Assembly: GCA_049304055.1 (NCBI GenBank)
Contig: JBAQNT010000007.1
Span: 55,370 to 119,369, forward strand
Origin: Microgenomates group bacterium
GTDB lineage: Bacteria; Patescibacteriota; Microgenomatia; UBA1406; GWC2-37-13
Direction of reading: 5' to 3'
Length of the DNA stretch: 64,000 nucleotides
Shown: positions 1,137 to 7,639 of the stretch, one piece after another
How positions within the stretch are numbered: position 1 is the first letter of the stretch
How the letters are laid out: each line of letters starts with the position of its first letter
The notes under the pieces: model-generated
Told to the model about the DNA's origin: nothing
Databases searched by the model: none
Seen by the model: only the letters and a program-made list of their open reading frames with translations
Translations under genes and position numbers: made by a program

Positions 1137-1210
1137 TGCCCGGTCGTCTAACGGTAGGACATCAGACTCTGAATCTGATTATCTTGGTTCAAATCCAGGC
1201 TGGGCAACCA
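1137..1210 (+). tRNA. tRNA-Gln (anticodon CUG), CCA encoded
   Basis: Hand-folded cloverleaf. Acceptor TGCCCGG/CTGGGCA (one G-U pair), D-arm GTCT..GGAC, anticodon stem TCAGA/TCTGA with loop CTCTGAA (anticodon CTG). T-arm CTTGG/CCAGG with loop TTCAAAT, discriminator A, then CCA. Confidence 0.85.
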
Positions 1211-4200
1211 ACACAAAATTACAAATCCTCCCCTTCACATAGATAAGCTTGTAAGTATTTCCTGTTATATATTTTGCTATTCCTTCTGATTTAAGAGCGG
1301 CTTTCTCTATGTCGGCTTGCGTTGAAGCTACAGGAACGACAACAGTTCCGCGGAATTTGCCATTTACCTGGACCGGGACCTCAACGATAGTTTCTCTGAC
1401 ATCAACGGCAGTCTGCATGGGCCAATTGCTTAAGTGCACCGATTTTTTTTCATTAAAGATATCTCTCCATATCTTTTCAGATACAAATGGTGCGAAGGGT
1501 GCCAAAATCTGTATGAATTTTCGTGATTCATCCCTGGATAACTCAGGCTTTGACTCATACATATTAAGAAACTCCATCATGGCGGCAATCGCTGTGTTGA
1601 ATTTTGTCTGTGAAATGTCATCTCCCACTTTCTGTATTGTCTTATTGAGCTTGTTTACTAATTCTGGATTTGATGATTGAGTAAACGACTGAGTCGCATA
1701 CAGGCTCCAAACACGCTTCACGAAACGGTGTGCGCCTTGGAGGGCTTTCATCGACCAAGCGATTTCCATGTTGAACGGCGCCATAAACATCTCATACAGT
1801 CGAAGAGTGTCTGCCCCATACTGCGCCACCACATCATCTGGGTTGATGGTGTTTCCCCATGACTTACTCATTTTTCTATGATCTTCTGCTAAAACCATCC
1901 CAACATTACGGAGTCTTAAGAATGGTTCTGGATAATTAAGAAGCCCCAAATCGCGCAATGCCTTAACCCAAAAACGTGCATAGAGAAGGTGTAAGACCGC
2001 GTGTTCCGCTCCTCCCAGATACCAATCAACTGGCATCCATTTATTTTCTTTCAAGCTAAGTTTGAACTCTTCCAAAGATTCATTCCTCGTATCCTGTCCA
2101 AAACGAAGGAAATACCAACAACTCCCCGCCCAGTTAGGCATGGTGTCAGTTTCTCTTTTTGCACTTCCCCCACAAACAGGACAGACTGACTTTGAGAATC
2201 CAGCGATCTTTGATAATGGAGACTCACCTGTGTCTGTCGGCTCATATGATTCCGTATAGGGCAGTTCAAGAGGAATGTCTTTTTCATCAATCATCGTCCA
2301 TCCACCAACCATACGTGTTTCGATAAATCTCAACAGCTCAAACTGTTCTGGTGCATCTTTTGTGCCGGCACTGAAATGTGCTTTTCCTGGCATAACATAT
2401 ACATTTGCTTTCCCAAATTGTTTTTCGGCAAACAGCTTCATTTCTTTGGGCAGATAGGGGTCATTTTCTCCGAAAACGACAGTTATTTTACGAACGTTCT
2501 TTTTTATCTTATCCCAATCTATTGGATGTGCATTATAAAGAGTAGCCATAGCATCAGCAGTTTCTTGATTGAATGCTTTTGCCAATACCGGCTTATACGC
2601 TTCATCCACATAGAGGACTGGAGCAACGAGCACCAATTGATCAATTTTTTGGTTTTGAGCAATATGGAGTGCCGTTCCTGCACCACTTGAGTGCCCAATG
2701 ATGATTGAAGATGTTCCTATGAAATCCTTATAGTTATCTTGCAGAAATGCCTGTCGCGTTTCATAGCTTGGCATACGCGCATCAGGAAGTGTTGGACTGA
2801 CCGTCTTTACTCCTGCTGACTCCATATGGTTACGAAGCCATGGAAACCAATTCCCCTCGCCATTCCCCCATGTACCGTGGATAATCATCATGTTCGTATC
2901 ATTTCCTTTCTTTTCACAGGCATCGCAATGAACCATCGGAATAGGTTCACCCCAGTATCTCTGACGTGAAAAAATCCAATCACGGAGATGATATGTCGTA
3001 ATGCGCTTTCCCCACTTCTTCTCTTCGATATGATCCATAATCTTCGCTGTGGCAGTATGTATATCCATATCGTTTAGGAATCCTGAATTCATCATCACAC
3101 CTTCCTCTTCCTGAACCTGTTCACGCTTCGTAATTGGTGAAACGTCTCCATCTTTGCCCTTCACGACACGGATTATTTCTATTCCAAACGTCTGTGCAAA
3201 ATCAAAGTCTCGCAAATCATGTGCTGGTACACCCACTACCGCACCCGTCCCAAAGCCCATAAGGACAAAGTCAGATGTCCAAACAGGTAGTTTCTTCCCG
3301 TTCAGATTATTGATAGCATAAAGTCCGGTGAAGGCGCCTGTTTTCTTCTTCCCTTCCGATTCCCGCTCCATTTCGCTTTTTGATGCAGTTTTGGTGCGAT
3401 ATTCCTCCAATCCCTGCGCGATTTTTGCGTCAACGGATATTTTCCCCGTGATGATATCCGTTATGAGTTTATGTTCCGGAGCTAAGACAATGAATGTTGC
3501 CCCAAAATTGGTATCGGGCCGTGTTGTGAAGCATGTTATTGACTCATTGGTATTTTCTATCGCATAAACGATATTGATGCCTGATTTTTTTCCGATCCAA
3601 TTCTTTTGCATTTCAAGAATGCCCTTTGGCCAATCGAGCAGTTTGAGGTCCTCAAGGAGCTGTTCTCCGTATGCTGTTATGCGAAATATCCATTGTGGGA
3701 GCTCTTTTTTTGTTATTTCGCTTCCACATCTCTCATGAGTGCCATTTGCAAGCACTTCTTCTTCTGCCAGACCGGTTTTACATTTGGGACACCAATGGAT
3801 GGGAGTGTTTCTTTTATACAACAGACCCATCTTAAAGAACTGCATGAAGAGCCATTGTGTCCATTTATAGTAACTAGGATCGGTCGTTGCGAATTCACGC
3901 TTCCAGTCATACGATAACCCAAGCATATTCATCTGCCTTTTGAAGTTGAGTATGTTTCCTGGTACCATGTCGAGCGGGTTCTTATGCGCTTTGATTGCGG
4001 CATTTTCTGCAGGTAATCCGAATGCATCCCATCCCATGGGGTGCAGTACCTGTTTTCCTGACATCTTGAAGTATCTCGCCATGACATCTGTGCCTGTATA
4101 TATACGAACGTGCCCAACATGAAGACCGGCACCTGATGGATATGGAAACATCGAAAGGCAATATGCTTTATTCTCGTTATTCTTTTCACTAGACCCTGCG

Positions 4201-4283
4201 GTCAGATAGACCTGTTCTTTCCCCCATAACTCTGTCATCTTTGATTCAAATTCTGATGGGTTATATTTCGCTTTATCGTCCAT
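1179..4283 (-). CDS. leuS: Leucyl-tRNA synthetase (1034 aa) with a ~200-aa alpha/beta-hydrolase-like insertion
   Basis: Class I motifs PYPSGAGLHVGH (HIGH) and KMSKS. The CP1 editing region contains TTRPDTNFGATF. Zn-knuckles HCDAC and CPVCGG..KRETDTM are present. The extra domain lies between the knuckles (see finding). Confidence 0.93.
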   Translation of the reverse strand: MDDKAKYNPSEFESKMTELWGKEQVYLTAGSSEKNNENKAYCLSMFPYPSGAGLHVGHVRIYTGTDVMARYFKMSGKQVLHPMGWDAFGLPAENAAIKAHKNPLDMVPGNILNFKRQMNMLGLSYDWKREFATTDPSYYKWTQWLFMQFFKMGLLYKRNTPIHWCPKCKTGLAEEEVLANGTHERCGSEITKKELPQWIFRITAYGEQLLEDLKLLDWPKGILEMQKNWIGKKSGINIVYAIENTNESITCFTTRPDTNFGATFIVLAPEHKLITDIITGKISVDAKIAQGLEEYRTKTASKSEMERESEGKKKTGAFTGLYAINNLNGKKLPVWTSDFVLMGFGTGAVVGVPAHDLRDFDFAQTFGIEIIRVVKGKDGDVSPITKREQVQEEEGVMMNSGFLNDMDIHTATAKIMDHIEEKKWGKRITTYHLRDWIFSRQRYWGEPIPMVHCDACEKKGNDTNMMIIHGTWGNGEGNWFPWLRNHMESAGVKTVSPTLPDARMPSYETRQAFLQDNYKDFIGTSSIIIGHSSGAGTALHIAQNQKIDQLVLVAPVLYVDEAYKPVLAKAFNQETADAMATLYNAHPIDWDKIKKNVRKITVVFGENDPYLPKEMKLFAEKQFGKANVYVMPGKAHFSAGTKDAPEQFELLRFIETRMVGGWTMIDEKDIPLELPYTESYEPTDTGESPLSKIAGFSKSVCPVCGGSAKRETDTMPNWAGSCWYFLRFGQDTRNESLEEFKLSLKENKWMPVDWYLGGAEHAVLHLLYARFWVKALRDLGLLNYPEPFLRLRNVGMVLAEDHRKMSKSWGNTINPDDVVAQYGADTLRLYEMFMAPFNMEIAWSMKALQGAHRFVKRVWSLYATQSFTQSSNPELVNKLNKTIQKVGDDISQTKFNTAIAAMMEFLNMYESKPELSRDESRKFIQILAPFAPFVSEKIWRDIFNEKKSVHLSNWPMQTAVDVRETIVEVPVQVNGKFRGTVVVPVASTQADIEKAALKSEGIAKYITGNTYKLIYVKGRICNFVLVAQPGFEPR

Positions 4284-4322: not shown

Positions 4323-5345
4323 TTAATCAAATCGCTTCAGTAAATTATACACCTTCTCTTTTATCTTTTCAGTCACGAGAACACGCACGGCTCCGACACT
4401 CTGTTGACCATACCACACCGCTGATCCAAGCGGAGCAAGTAGGATTGTCGGGAGCGTCAACAGGTCTTCCTCCCCTGTAATGAATAGCTGTTTTGTGGCC
4501 TTATTATGCCCTGAATGAATTAGTGAAGATATCTTGATTATTGCTTCTCTTTGGATTGTCCCTTTTTCATTTAAAGCATATTGACAATCTAATTGCTGTA
4601 TTTTTTTGAGAATAGTCTTATTTAGGGCTTTTCGCTGTGTTTTTCCGTCAATCACCGAAATGGATGGGAATTTTCCATTTTTTTGGAGTTCACTCGTTAC
4701 GACGTCTCCTATCGAAATATCCAAAGGTATATCGCTATTAGCTTCAGATTCGAACTCTTTACTCGCACCTTCTGCAAATTGATGAGGGAACTGCGAAAAT
4801 GAAGAAAAAATGCGGCCCAATGGATGCCTTAAACCCCCTCTAAGCGATTCTGGCAGAATAAATACTTTTCTGCTAATTAGGAACGAATAATAGCCTCTCC
4901 CTGTTCGGGTGATCAACCCTTGCCGAATACGTTCTGATGAGATAACCTCTCCATTCTCATCTTCAACAAGGGGAACTATGTATATAAAAAGGGGCTTCAT
5001 ACCAAGCTTTAGTCTCATATCATTGATCTTCTTTCCACCTATAGATGTGTCTTTTGTGAGAAAAAGAGCTTCAAAGTCGTTTTTTTTGATAGTAGGACCA
5101 AAAATATCATGCAGTTTCACTATTTCCACCGTTTTCTTGTGCAGTGTCGCAAATTGGAGGACTGTTTTTTTTCGGACAACATATGATTGAATGGAGTGAC
5201 TATATCGTTTATGCCTTACCATTGCCCCATCTGTGATACCTATCGTTACTTTTTCTCCTGCTCTAAAAGCACTCAGAAGCAACTGTTCATGACCCTTATG
5301 GAAATGGTCAAATGTTCCTCCGCAAACCACATGATGCAGTTTCAT
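4323..5345 (-). CDS. Fusion of archaeal-type phosphopantetheine adenylyltransferase (N-terminal) and DUF359-type GTP-dependent dephospho-CoA kinase (C-terminal)
   Basis: N-terminus HVVCGGTFDHFHKGHEQLL is the cytidylyltransferase GGTFDxxHxGH signature. The C-terminal half has LRHPLGRI...ISIGDVVTSEL...ISVIDGKTQRK, which is typical of the DUF359 family. Confidence 0.7.
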   Translation of the reverse strand: MKLHHVVCGGTFDHFHKGHEQLLLSAFRAGEKVTIGITDGAMVRHKRYSHSIQSYVVRKKTVLQFATLHKKTVEIVKLHDIFGPTIKKNDFEALFLTKDTSIGGKKINDMRLKLGMKPLFIYIVPLVEDENGEVISSERIRQGLITRTGRGYYSFLISRKVFILPESLRGGLRHPLGRIFSSFSQFPHQFAEGASKEFESEANSDIPLDISIGDVVTSELQKNGKFPSISVIDGKTQRKALNKTILKKIQQLDCQYALNEKGTIQREAIIKISSLIHSGHNKATKQLFITGEEDLLTLPTILLAPLGSAVWYGQQSVGAVRVLVTEKIKEKVYNLLKRFD

Positions 5346-5449: not shown

Positions 5450-6544
5450 ATGCCCCCAATTCATCCCCGCGTCCGTATAGTGATAGTATTAGTGCTTTCT
5501 TTTGCCTTAAGTGGAATTTTGATGAAATATACACAGGAATCCCCTCAAGATGGGACACCATCCATCCAAATCCAAAATATCGCTTCCGATTTCTCCCGTT
5601 CCATTTCAGACTCCAGTGCTGGCATCCTGAGTACCTTACAGTCTGTCCGCATCCCTACCCTTATATCCCTTTCGCCTTCCACACCTGTGGATCCTGTCGA
5701 TACTGCACCTGAGCCGACTCCTGATGAATGGTTGATAGAACCCACCTCTCCTCCCGAAGCTCCTACTTCCACCCCCGCCATCCTTAACCCTGCTGAGCCC
5801 ACCTCGCCTCCCTATACAACCCAAGCTCCTCCTAAAAATCCAACAATTCGCCCAACCGCTCCTCCTCAGCCGACAAAAGTGCCAAAACCGACGAAAGTTC
5901 CCAAACCAACGGAGGCTGTCTATCCACCGATAAATGATGATGTCCGACCCGGAACAAGCATCGAGGAAATCATGAAAGATGTTGAAAAGAGAGCGTGTGT
6001 TCCGTATAAGCTCCTTATGGCCATACGTACTCTTGAAGCGGGAAATTGGTTTAAAAATATGAGTGCAACAACCGCAAAGATGTATAACACCTATGGATGG
6101 TGGAAAACAGCGGATAAGGGGACTGTGTGTGCTGGATTGGGCTATTATACTCAATCTGGGATTATTCCTCCTGATAGTGCTGGGGCAGGTGAAACATGTA
6201 GCAGTAAAATAGGCCTTCAAACATATGATCTTAAGATTATGGGTATTATGCAAATCTCAGAACAAGAAGAGCAGGTTACTCGAAAATACACGATAAAAAC
6301 ATTGCCTAAAAATATAGATAGACGTGTGTTATTTGATAACATGCTCATATTTGGAATAGCCACAAAAAATAGAGCTGGAAAATTTCCCCAACCCAGTTGC
6401 TCTGACTGGCCACAAGAAACAGTTAAGGAAGTGGCGCGTATTCATGCATCAGGAAGTTCTGGATCCTGTAATTACACTTACTCACAGAACGGCAAGTCAG
6501 GAAATTACTGTAATGAAGTGTGGGATCTCTATAAATCCTACTAA
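5450..6544 (+). CDS. Membrane-anchored protein with a Pro/Thr-rich linker and a C-terminal SLT-like lytic transglycosylase domain
   Basis: N-terminal TM segment IVIVLVLSFALSGILM. The PT-rich stretch includes a PTKVPKPTKVPKPTE mini-repeat. LMAIRTLEAGNWF and GIMQISEQE resemble the catalytic-Glu and GLMQ motifs of SLT domains. Confidence 0.5.
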   Translation: MPPIHPRVRIVIVLVLSFALSGILMKYTQESPQDGTPSIQIQNIASDFSRSISDSSAGILSTLQSVRIPTLISLSPSTPVDPVDTAPEPTPDEWLIEPTSPPEAPTSTPAILNPAEPTSPPYTTQAPPKNPTIRPTAPPQPTKVPKPTKVPKPTEAVYPPINDDVRPGTSIEEIMKDVEKRACVPYKLLMAIRTLEAGNWFKNMSATTAKMYNTYGWWKTADKGTVCAGLGYYTQSGIIPPDSAGAGETCSSKIGLQTYDLKIMGIMQISEQEEQVTRKYTIKTLPKNIDRRVLFDNMLIFGIATKNRAGKFPQPSCSDWPQETVKEVARIHASGSSGSCNYTYSQNGKSGNYCNEVWDLYKSY

Positions 6545-7639
6545 TTACCTGGTTATCTGATAGCTTTTGACTGTTTCTAGAAGTTTTTTCGCTTCTTCAC
6601 TATCTTCAAAATGCTTTCTGACGGGCTGCAATAATTTATCAATAAGTATAACGACCGTATTTTTTAAGTCCATTGGGTGCAACTTCTTTTCAGCAAATGC
6701 CGCTTCCAGTTCTGCGTAGGTTTTAAATCGCAGTGTCCCGCCCCATTTTTCCGGGCGTTCGACAACGAACTCAGTGATGCTAAGTCGCTCAAAAGACTCA
6801 AATATAATGTATTTGCAATATTCAAGCACTGGATTTTCCTTTACATCCCCCTCCAAACAATATGCCTTATTAATTTTTCGCTGTACATCTTCTTTCGTAT
6901 CGGTCATGAATATCGCGGTATCGGGCTTTGACTTGGACATCTTCAGTTCGATGGTCCTTTGGAGTGCGTCCTGCTCATTTGAGACAGGTTTTGCCAGCCC
7001 GCGAAGCATGTGATGGCTGACGACAACCGGTTTCCAGTATCCCAACTGTTGCCCGACTTCCCGCGCCAACATATTCACTTTGCGTTGATCCATGCCAAGT
7101 TGGGTAATTTTCGCACCCAACATGAAAATGTCAGCAACTTGCATACAGGAGTAGATGATATGTGCGCCAGTAAGCTTTTCAAGTGACTCCTCACGTCCCA
7201 TCATCTCGGCAGTCCGGATGAACCGTTTCAACGCATTTGATTTTCCGACCTGCACGACAAGTTTCCAGTATTCTGGATTCTTTGCCATATCAGACGCCCA
7301 CATGAACTCAACGTTATCAAGGTCCATGCCGCTCGCCCGCCAGACCTCAATAAAATATTTTCCGACAGTCTTTATCTTTTCCAAGTCCCCACCCATCTTG
7401 TTGTTCGCCATCGCGTGCCAATCCGCAACCCACATACGGAACTTGACTCCAGCCTTGATCATTTTATTCACGTTGATCGCACGAAGAAGACCTTGTGCAA
7501 TATGAATTTGTCCAGACGGTTCAAATCCGTCATATGCAATAAGCTGTTCGCCGCTTTCAAGAAGGGATTTCAGTTCCTCTCCTCCGATTATTTCTTCACC
7601 CACCTCGTTAATAAGATTCAGCTTATCTTCTGTATTCAT
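6545..7639 (-). CDS. tyrS: Tyrosyl-tRNA synthetase, archaeal/eukaryal type
   Basis: YDGFEPSGQIHIAQG (HIGH region) and KMSKSKPD (KMSKS). The C-terminal RPEKWGGTL...KKLHPMDLKNTV closely parallels the Methanocaldococcus-type TyrRS as I recall it from memory. Confidence 0.85.
   Translation of the reverse strand: MNTEDKLNLINEVGEEIIGGEELKSLLESGEQLIAYDGFEPSGQIHIAQGLLRAINVNKMIKAGVKFRMWVADWHAMANNKMGGDLEKIKTVGKYFIEVWRASGMDLDNVEFMWASDMAKNPEYWKLVVQVGKSNALKRFIRTAEMMGREESLEKLTGAHIIYSCMQVADIFMLGAKITQLGMDQRKVNMLAREVGQQLGYWKPVVVSHHMLRGLAKPVSNEQDALQRTIELKMSKSKPDTAIFMTDTKEDVQRKINKAYCLEGDVKENPVLEYCKYIIFESFERLSITEFVVERPEKWGGTLRFKTYAELEAAFAEKKLHPMDLKNTVVILIDKLLQPVRKHFEDSEEAKKLLETVKSYQITR

Follow-up and report, generated by a model that had tools for sequence, protein, structure and literature searches.

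The leucyl-tRNA synthetase (LeuRS) gene leuS of an uncultured ultrasmall bacterium of the candidate phyla radiation (CPR; Microgenomates group, assembly GCA_049304055.1, contig JBAQNT010000007.1) encodes a protein of 1034 amino acids (aa), into which a complete 200-aa α/β serine hydrolase of the RBBP9/YdeN type (Pfam family PF06821) is inserted between the two cysteine pairs of the zinc-binding Zn2 domain. All coordinates refer to the analysed 64,000-nt stretch of this contig (the window). The insert is shared by eight other LeuRS and maintained by purifying selection, and related hydrolases reside at three different sites in LeuRS of further CPR bacteria. The nested domain may represent an autonomous second enzyme hosted by the synthetase.

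The first-pass annotation of the window had reported an additional segment of ~200 aa at 2304-2903 between the zinc knuckles of this LeuRS, at a site occupied by just a few residues in canonical enzymes, and had interpreted it as a self-contained serine hydrolase of the YdeN/RBBP9 type on the basis of four motifs (oxyanion region, nucleophile elbow, acid and histidine). Translation of the open reading frame (ORF) reproduces these coordinates and all motif positions. The insert extends from NDTNMM to ETRMVG, with the junctions KKG/NDTN and RMVG/GWTM. Since its flanks align to C442 and P446 of LeuRS from Thermus thermophilus, 200 residues in the window protein correspond to 3 in Thermus; the equivalent stretch comprises 0-42 residues in 112 close CPR relatives lacking the domain. 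The gene and the elements of the insert are as follows:

1179..4283, minus strand: leuS, complete bacterial-type LeuRS, 1034 aa (ORF list, TIGR00396, Pfam and AlphaFold2 (AF2) model)
2304..2903, minus strand: inserted RBBP9/YdeN-type α/β serine hydrolase, residues 461-660, 200 aa (PF06821, AF2 and Foldseek)
2874..2879, minus strand: probable oxyanion-hole region, His469-Gly470 of IIHGTWG, following strand 1 (invariant in 118 family members)
2682..2696, minus strand: nucleophile elbow GHSSG, with the predicted nucleophile Ser532 at 2688-2690 (aligning to Ser75 of RBBP9)
2460..2462, minus strand: predicted catalytic acid Asp608 of GENDPY (invariant in the family)
2376..2378, minus strand: predicted catalytic base His636 of GKAHF (invariant in the family)

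Searched alone against the Pfam profiles, the insert matches PF06821 (Ser_hydrolase) with 39.5 bits (E 7e-10, cut-off 22; 34.6 bits within the whole protein) and also exceeds the thresholds of Abhydrolase_6, Abhydrolase_1 and Hydrolase_4. The nearest solved structures by sequence (phmmer) are human RBBP9 (E 2e-8) and Bacillus subtilis YdeN (E 2e-4). An AF2 model of the insert, based on a 118-sequence alignment, has a mean predicted local distance difference test (pLDDT) score of 91.2 and a predicted template modelling score (pTM) of 0.89. Compared with the PDB by Foldseek, it retrieves RBBP9 (2qs9, 7oex, 9fcr) and YdeN (1uxo) as the top seven matches (E 1e-12 to 3e-11, template modelling (TM) score 0.74-0.81), followed by larger esterases (E ~1e-8). 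A combined MAFFT alignment of LeuRS and stand-alone proteins (A4) was discarded for structure prediction in favour of a LeuRS-only alignment (A5), since the hydrolases fell outside the insert columns. The hydrolase signal in the insert is far beyond chance, and the model predicts an independently folded α/β-hydrolase domain with a complete Ser532-Asp608-His636 triad, as the motifs had led the first-pass annotation to expect.

Ser, Asp and His of the triad are invariant in 118/118 family members and in 28/28 LeuRS-embedded copies. The HG motif, assigned as probable oxyanion region by analogy to the general α/β-hydrolase architecture, is likewise kept in all 28 embedded copies, the lineages of which are only ~30-45 % identical to one another. 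No similarity of the insert to known editing or trans-editing folds of aminoacyl-tRNA synthetases (aaRS; CP1, INS/YbaK, AlaX, DTD, N2) was found, with α/β-hydrolases as the only matches in Pfam, NCBIfam and the top 50 PDB fold hits.

The host protein matches the bacterial LeuRS profile TIGR00396 (leuS_bact) with 914 bits (cut-off 548.4) in two stretches, with the insert lying between them, and contains the Pfam domains tRNA-synt_1, tRNA-synt_1_2, PF13603 (LeuRS editing) and Anticodon_1. Its landmarks are:

4110..4121, minus strand: HIGH motif as HVGH, residues 55-58 (translation; invariant in the orthologue alignment)
3027..3605, minus strand: CP1 editing domain, residues 227-419 (PF13603, 195.5 bits)
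3510-3527, minus strand: T-rich editing peptide TTRPDT, residues 253-258 (translation)
3207-3221, minus strand: HDLRD of CP1, residues 355-359 (translation)
2916..2930, minus strand: first Zn2 knuckle HCDAC, Cys453 and Cys456 (aligning to C439/C442 of T. thermophilus LeuRS)
2166..2183, minus strand: second Zn2 knuckle CPVCGG, Cys701 and Cys704 (aligning to C484/C487 of T. thermophilus LeuRS)
1860..1874, minus strand: KMSKS loop, residues 804-808 (translation; invariant in orthologues)

The four cysteines on both sides of the insert (453, 456, 701 and 704) are invariant across the orthologue alignment; the domain harbouring them has been named Zn2 in structural work (PMC9424281). The full-length AF2 model (pLDDT 85.7, pTM 0.80) superimposes on LeuRS structures 2bte, 4aq7 and 3zgz with target-normalised TM scores of 0.81-0.84, and the insert retains its secondary structure in this context (pLDDT ~60-95). 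Judged from its sequence, leuS of the window appears to be a housekeeping LeuRS gene with intact catalytic, editing, zinc and tRNA-binding elements, and the LeuRS moiety would charge tRNA-Leu in the canonical manner.

A search with the full-length protein yielded eight other LeuRS (P0006-P0012 and P0015; 1025-1078 aa, 65-88 % identical) with PF06821 at the identical place, so that conservation within the lineage, one of the checks proposed with the first-pass annotation, is evident. All four motifs are invariant in the nine insert-bearing orthologues, and the domain is present in many independent assemblies from different samples (e.g., SRR22216446, ERR15087765, GCA_964562055.1). Profile and fold matches, a triad retained in every orthologue and the occurrence in independent assemblies run counter to all three objections foreseen in the first-pass annotation, the structural part of which is fully supported. 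A word-indexed search with the insert alone returned only 5 proteins and missed the orthologues; the full-length query and an exhaustive search of representative proteins were therefore used. Scanning of GTDB with single-sequence peptide patterns likewise gave nothing, whereas the alignment-based genome scan used instead yielded five species representatives; four GTDB species representatives carry the insert of the window clade. The carriers share a common gene order (ADP-forming acyl-CoA synthetase, class Ic aaRS, CTP_transf-DUF359 fusion, leuS, then BipA), and the neighbours of the insert-bearing clade are labelled Roizmanbacteria, Microgenomates or Patescibacteria.

The nearest relatives without insert (P0013, P0014) are ~82 % identical outside the insert and CP1 and have ~20 unrelated residues at the site; in case of P0014, leuS occupies the syntenic position on a 1.2-Mb contig. 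Thus, the insertion arose within a small clade. Among the orthologues, insert identity (66-91 %) tracks host identity (75-93 %). For the window protein and P0007, the only pair with unsaturated dS, Nei-Gojobori ratios of nonsynonymous to synonymous substitution rates (dN/dS) amount to 0.066 (insert) and 0.038 (host); the comparison with P0006 gives 0.037 and 0.030, respectively. Hence the insert is under purifying selection, with a constraint nearly equal to that of the host. The guanine-plus-cytosine (GC) content of the insert (0.41-0.45) matches that of the host and is uniform across the junctions, where no flanking repeats beyond chance were found; the insert is neither recent nor foreign DNA. 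Insertion of a mobile or IS element was rejected on the same grounds (no such repeats, no GC break), and an intein was rejected since the junctions lack its signature (no Cys/Ser start, no end with His-Asn plus Cys/Ser/Thr).

The 3' end of the host gene shows a peculiarity of its own. The reading frame of leuS terminates within a convergently oriented tRNA-Gln(CTG) gene (1137-1210, plus strand), the antisense overlap amounting to 32 nt (leuS end at 1179-1214, minus strand), such that the C-terminal tail of LeuRS (...VAQPGFEPR) is a reverse-strand reading of the tRNA gene. Apart from the window protein, only its closest orthologues, P0006 and P0007, have this tail; in other relatives, the reading frame ends 8-10 codons earlier.

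To assess the wider distribution of the domain, 1.84 billion representative proteins were searched exhaustively by phmmer with the insert as query, and 1310 relatives were obtained at E<=1e-3. Of the best 150 representative relatives, the longer proteins were scanned with Pfam, and insertion sites were assigned by landmarks and by pairwise alignment to the insert-less P0014. LeuRS or LeuRS fragments account for 20 of these 150 and carry the hydrolase at three sites, one in the Zn2 hairpin and two in CP1:

Site A, Zn2 hairpin, after P0014 residues ~456-479: 12 of the 20, namely P0015 (window clade), P0126, P0127, P0001, P0142, P0153, P0197, P0207, P0224, P0139, P0246 and P0265
Site B, inside CP1 after HDxRD, following P0014 residues ~374-400: P0130, P0131, P0133, P0191 and P0170
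Site C, beginning of CP1, immediately ahead of the T-rich peptide: P0129 (two tandem copies) and P0152

No site could be assigned for the fragment P0192. L009, a 1053-aa LeuRS detected in the GTDB scan outside of the 150, also has the hydrolase at site A. The insertion sites coincide with loops of variable length in insert-less relatives, and two other small hydrolases occupy the sites within CP1: a NUDIX domain is present at site B in seven LeuRS (P0129, P0130, P0152, P0153, P0197, P0207 and probably P0246), and a Ham1/ITPase (inosine triphosphatase) domain at site C in P0139 and P0170. The CPR LeuRS bearing NUDIX or Ham1 reach 1223 aa and usually contain the serine hydrolase as well. LeuRS seems to have taken up small 'house-cleaning' hydrolases repeatedly. 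In public records, these proteins are designated only as leucine--tRNA ligase (e.g., MBP9758415.1 (P0139) of Ca. Dojkabacteria and RLG13644.1 (P0191)). The metagenome-assembled genomes of L005-L007 and L009 are titled 'uncultured Gammaproteobacteria bacterium', which looks generic or wrong, given their CPR-like gene content and nearest relatives.

In a neighbour-joining tree of 161 hydrolase domains, distinct groups are formed by the window clade with P0126 (bootstrap 76), by a second site-A group (96) and by a third group (87). As the deep branches have bootstrap 0, the tree does not separate a single capture from several; only the three distinct sites argue for several insertion events.

Most relatives of the insert are stand-alone CPR proteins of ~182-195 aa, and a profile search retrieved 2816 stand-alone matches (~182 aa) with source names including CPR3, Gottesmanbacteria and Daviesbacteria. 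Apart from LeuRS, the hydrolase is fused to (i) ribosomal protein L22, FtsY and LspA (signal peptidase II), (ii) Peptidase_S51 (twice) and an S9 peptidase, and (iii) HD, NUDIX, glyoxalase, DUF1653 and aminoglycoside nucleotidyltransferase domains (proteins P0236, P0168, P0226, P0166, P0255, P0241, P0158, P0143, P0223, P0148 and P0137). From these architectures, PF06821 appears to be a promiscuous fusion partner. A stand-alone PF06821 gene was found neither in the window nor at the syntenic position in the relative without insert.

HIT/Hint proteins hydrolyse aminoacyl-adenylates. At L011 (3561-4561), the last 4 nt of a HIT-family gene are shared with a stand-alone hydrolase gene, which makes co-translation probable in this single case with a weak Pfam match.

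With regard to function, RBBP9 is to our knowledge the only characterised member of the family. It is an aminopeptidase requiring a free α-amine, and in cells its Ser75 carries single hydrophobic amino acids (Leu/Ile, Met, Phe, Tyr, Trp) as acyl adducts; amide, ester or thioester bonds were considered as possible targets by its authors (PMC8866121). The window clade keeps the RBBP9-like GHSSG elbow, and the invariant Tyr563 (insert position 103) aligns to RBBP9 Tyr99, which is located near the substrate amine. By analogy to RBBP9, the explanation ranked first, and held with even confidence, is that the insert constitutes an active enzyme in its own right, of the aminoacyl-hydrolase or aminopeptidase type, for which a permissive loop of LeuRS serves as carrier. 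In the corresponding scenario, a small stand-alone PF06821 serine hydrolase, as abundant in CPR, would have been the donor; one such hydrolase would have been inserted into the variable surface loop that forms the tip of the Zn2 hairpin in the ancestor of a small Microgenomates/Roizmanbacteria-like clade and then inherited vertically under purifying selection. The domain would give the LeuRS polypeptide a second, autonomously working active site, which would cleave an aminoacyl linkage (amide or ester) of substrates with free α-amine and hydrophobic side chain via a Ser acyl-enzyme. LeuRS would mainly be a permissive, constitutively expressed carrier, and coupling to leucylation (supply of Leu from peptides, clearance of aminoacyl esters) would be a secondary benefit only. 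A carrier role of LeuRS is suggested because the sites are variable loops, NUDIX and Ham1 reside in identical loops, many other fusion partners exist and the embedded domains are acidic.

Several observations weigh against this explanation. LeuRS is over-represented as host (20 of the 150 best clusters vs one or two per other partner), and no IleRS, ValRS or MetRS was found among the best 150 relatives despite their similar architectures; a purely passive carrier model is insufficient to account for this host bias. Sites B and C both fall within the CP1 editing domain, a location compatible with a connection to proofreading. Moreover, Glu108, the α-amine anchor of RBBP9, is matched only tentatively, since insert position 117 (D, E or N) falls into a gapped part of the alignment.

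The explanation ranked second, considered unlikely and already raised by the first-pass annotation, is extra proofreading, in which the hydrolase would deacylate mis-charged tRNA-Leu or hydrolyse non-cognate aminoacyl-adenylate in cis or trans, supplementing or replacing CP1. Besides the strong preference for LeuRS as host and the use of three independent sites, it draws on the acyl-enzyme of RBBP9 with free-amine Leu, Ile or Met and on the possible cleavage of amide, ester and thioester bonds (PMC8866121). The state of CP1 itself bears on this explanation. A second CP1 type has SAYPAW in place of the T-rich editing peptide TTRPDT and conserves GTG and HDxRD. Of 121 related LeuRS, 13 possess this type (P0007, P0012, P0015 and 10 insert-less proteins), i.e., 3/9 insert-bearing as compared to 10/112 insert-less LeuRS (Fisher p = 0.056). 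Between P0007 (L002, 6001-9078) and the window LeuRS, identity amounts to 93 % when CP1 and the insert are excluded and drops to 34 % within CP1 (proportion of nonsynonymous differences, pN, 0.41 within vs 0.04 outside). This suggests recombination of CP1 as a whole module between close relatives, by which editing may possibly be altered or lost. However, CP1 is canonical in the window protein and in 5/8 orthologues, and since the variant is also found without insert, variant CP1 and insert are not tightly linked.

Further findings weigh against a proofreading function. The embedded domains are acidic and do not differ from stand-alone proteins (median isoelectric point 6.06 vs 5.68, p = 0.41); the insert resembles no known editing fold, and no precedent for an α/β-hydrolase acting as aminoacyl-tRNA deacylase was found in the literature. 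The majority of the family occurs as stand-alone proteins or in fusions with unrelated partners, the unrelated NUDIX and ITPase enzymes occupy identical LeuRS loops, and the gene neighbourhoods of three stand-alone homologues display no link to tRNA or aaRS. In its most far-reaching form, this explanation would add the PF06821 domain to the aaRS proofreading modules as their fourth structural class; CPR bacteria would have acquired it independently at three LeuRS positions to act on mis-charged tRNA-Leu or non-cognate aminoacyl-AMP, and together with NUDIX and ITPase it would create a substrate-sanitising super-enzyme. This proposal is equally doubtful. Taken together, the evidence favours a hosted autonomous enzyme, the 'moonlighting' alternative of the first-pass annotation, at least as strongly as proofreading.

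Supply of leucine, ranked third and rather improbable, would involve an N-terminal (Leu/hydrophobic) aminopeptidase which frees the amino acid from scavenged peptides beside the synthetic site in a CPR cell auxotrophic for amino acids. The aminopeptidase activity of RBBP9 towards hydrophobic N-terminal residues (PMC8866121), the family fusions to Peptidase_S51 and S9 peptidase, and the location of the stand-alone hydrolase gene behind a solute-binding-protein gene in two genomes are consistent with such a role. However, an amino acid that diffuses freely could hardly be channelled along the protein surface unless a tunnel existed. Moreover, the presence of NUDIX and ITPase inserts is left unexplained, and substrate specificity is not readable from sequence.

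Inserted domains of aaRS often act as interaction modules, and the hydrolase might similarly serve as a structural, docking or regulatory module (responding to a partner or a small-molecule signal) with a vestigial triad. RBBP9 was first described as a protein-binding factor (PMC8866121). A vestigial site would hardly have retained Ser, Asp, His and HG in 28/28 embedded copies across divergent lineages, which renders a non-catalytic role very improbable. Virtually no weight is given to an artefact, i.e., a chimeric assembly or mis-called ORF fusing a hydrolase gene to leuS, since the insert is in frame, devoid of stop codons and uniform in GC at its junctions, occurs at the identical position in at least nine sequences of 65-88 % identity from separate assemblies with conserved synteny, and exhibits dN/dS well below 1.

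The genes adjacent to leuS in the window were inspected as well. Directly upstream (4323-5345, minus strand), a 340-aa fusion protein of a cytidylyltransferase-like domain (PF01467) and DUF359 (PF04019) is encoded, the synteny of which is kept in all relatives examined. DUF359 is presumably the archaeal GTP-dependent dephospho-CoA kinase (DPCK), and the PF01467-DUF359 fusion may be an archaeal-type phosphopantetheine adenylyltransferase (PPAT)-DPCK for the last steps of CoA formation. The following ORF (5450-6544, plus strand; 364 aa) is rich in Pro and Thr and of low complexity in its N-terminal half, shows a local rise in GC content to 0.52 and lacks a Pfam match; an ORF of equal size, also without Pfam match, is located at the equivalent position in L002. 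Further upstream (6545-7639, minus strand), a class Ic aaRS of 364 aa (PF00579) is encoded; Roizmanbacteria and other Microgenomates have been reported to possess TyrRS of archaeal/eukaryal type (PMC5370408).

The aaRS belong to the best-studied enzymes and are a classic case of functions (editing, tRNA-binding, signalling) grafted as accessory domains onto an ancient core. If the nested hydrolase is active as proposed, it could provide a synthetase with a quality-control or substrate-supply function that has so far escaped notice; alternatively, it could illustrate how bacteria with reduced genomes accommodate housekeeping enzymes in those loops of essential proteins that tolerate insertions. 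In addition, the CPR proteins offer a natural map of three insertion-tolerant LeuRS sites, useful for protein engineering, and add a bacterial context to the poorly understood RBBP9/YdeN family. The arrangement is recurrent, conserved and directly testable, and may therefore interest specialists for aaRS and CPR alike. The first-pass annotation had known of no described LeuRS with such an architecture; in agreement with this, no publication describing a LeuRS with a nested α/β hydrolase, NUDIX or ITPase domain was found in the full-text literature, with subscription journals mostly outside its coverage. Both domain families and synthetases with nested catalytic domains are already known, whereas no description was found for their combination as a hydrolase within LeuRS.

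Compared to known systems, the insert shares the fold, the GHSSG elbow, the Ser-Asp-His order and the size of ~190 aa with RBBP9 (2qs9, 7oex, 9fcr) and YdeN (1uxo). These two proteins are free-standing, whereas the window hydrolase is nested in another enzyme and only ~20 % identical to RBBP9; its lid segment is ~14 residues longer than that of stand-alone CPR homologues. All domains and motifs of canonical LeuRS (T. thermophilus 1h3n/2bte, Escherichia coli 4aq7, Neisseria gonorrhoeae 6q89) are shared by the window LeuRS, including the four-Cys Zn2 site as in the enzymes of T. thermophilus and N. gonorrhoeae. Other CPR LeuRS with PF06821 (P0131, P0130, P0139, P0191, L009) combine the same host with the same hydrolase family and keep the triad. 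Their embedded domains form well-separated lineages with GHSLG or GHSMG elbows in place of the GHSSG of the window clade, and some are located within CP1 or accompanied by NUDIX or ITPase. A nested or appended second catalytic domain, and thus the same principle, is represented by CP1 of LeuRS, IleRS and ValRS, by INS of ProRS and by the IleRS of family NF040702 with its N-acetyltransferase domain. The window LeuRS matches NF040702 only weakly via the shared class Ia core (53.8 bits, cut-off 1999) and is not a member, and its inserted α/β hydrolase is unrelated to the known editing domains as well as to the GNAT domain.

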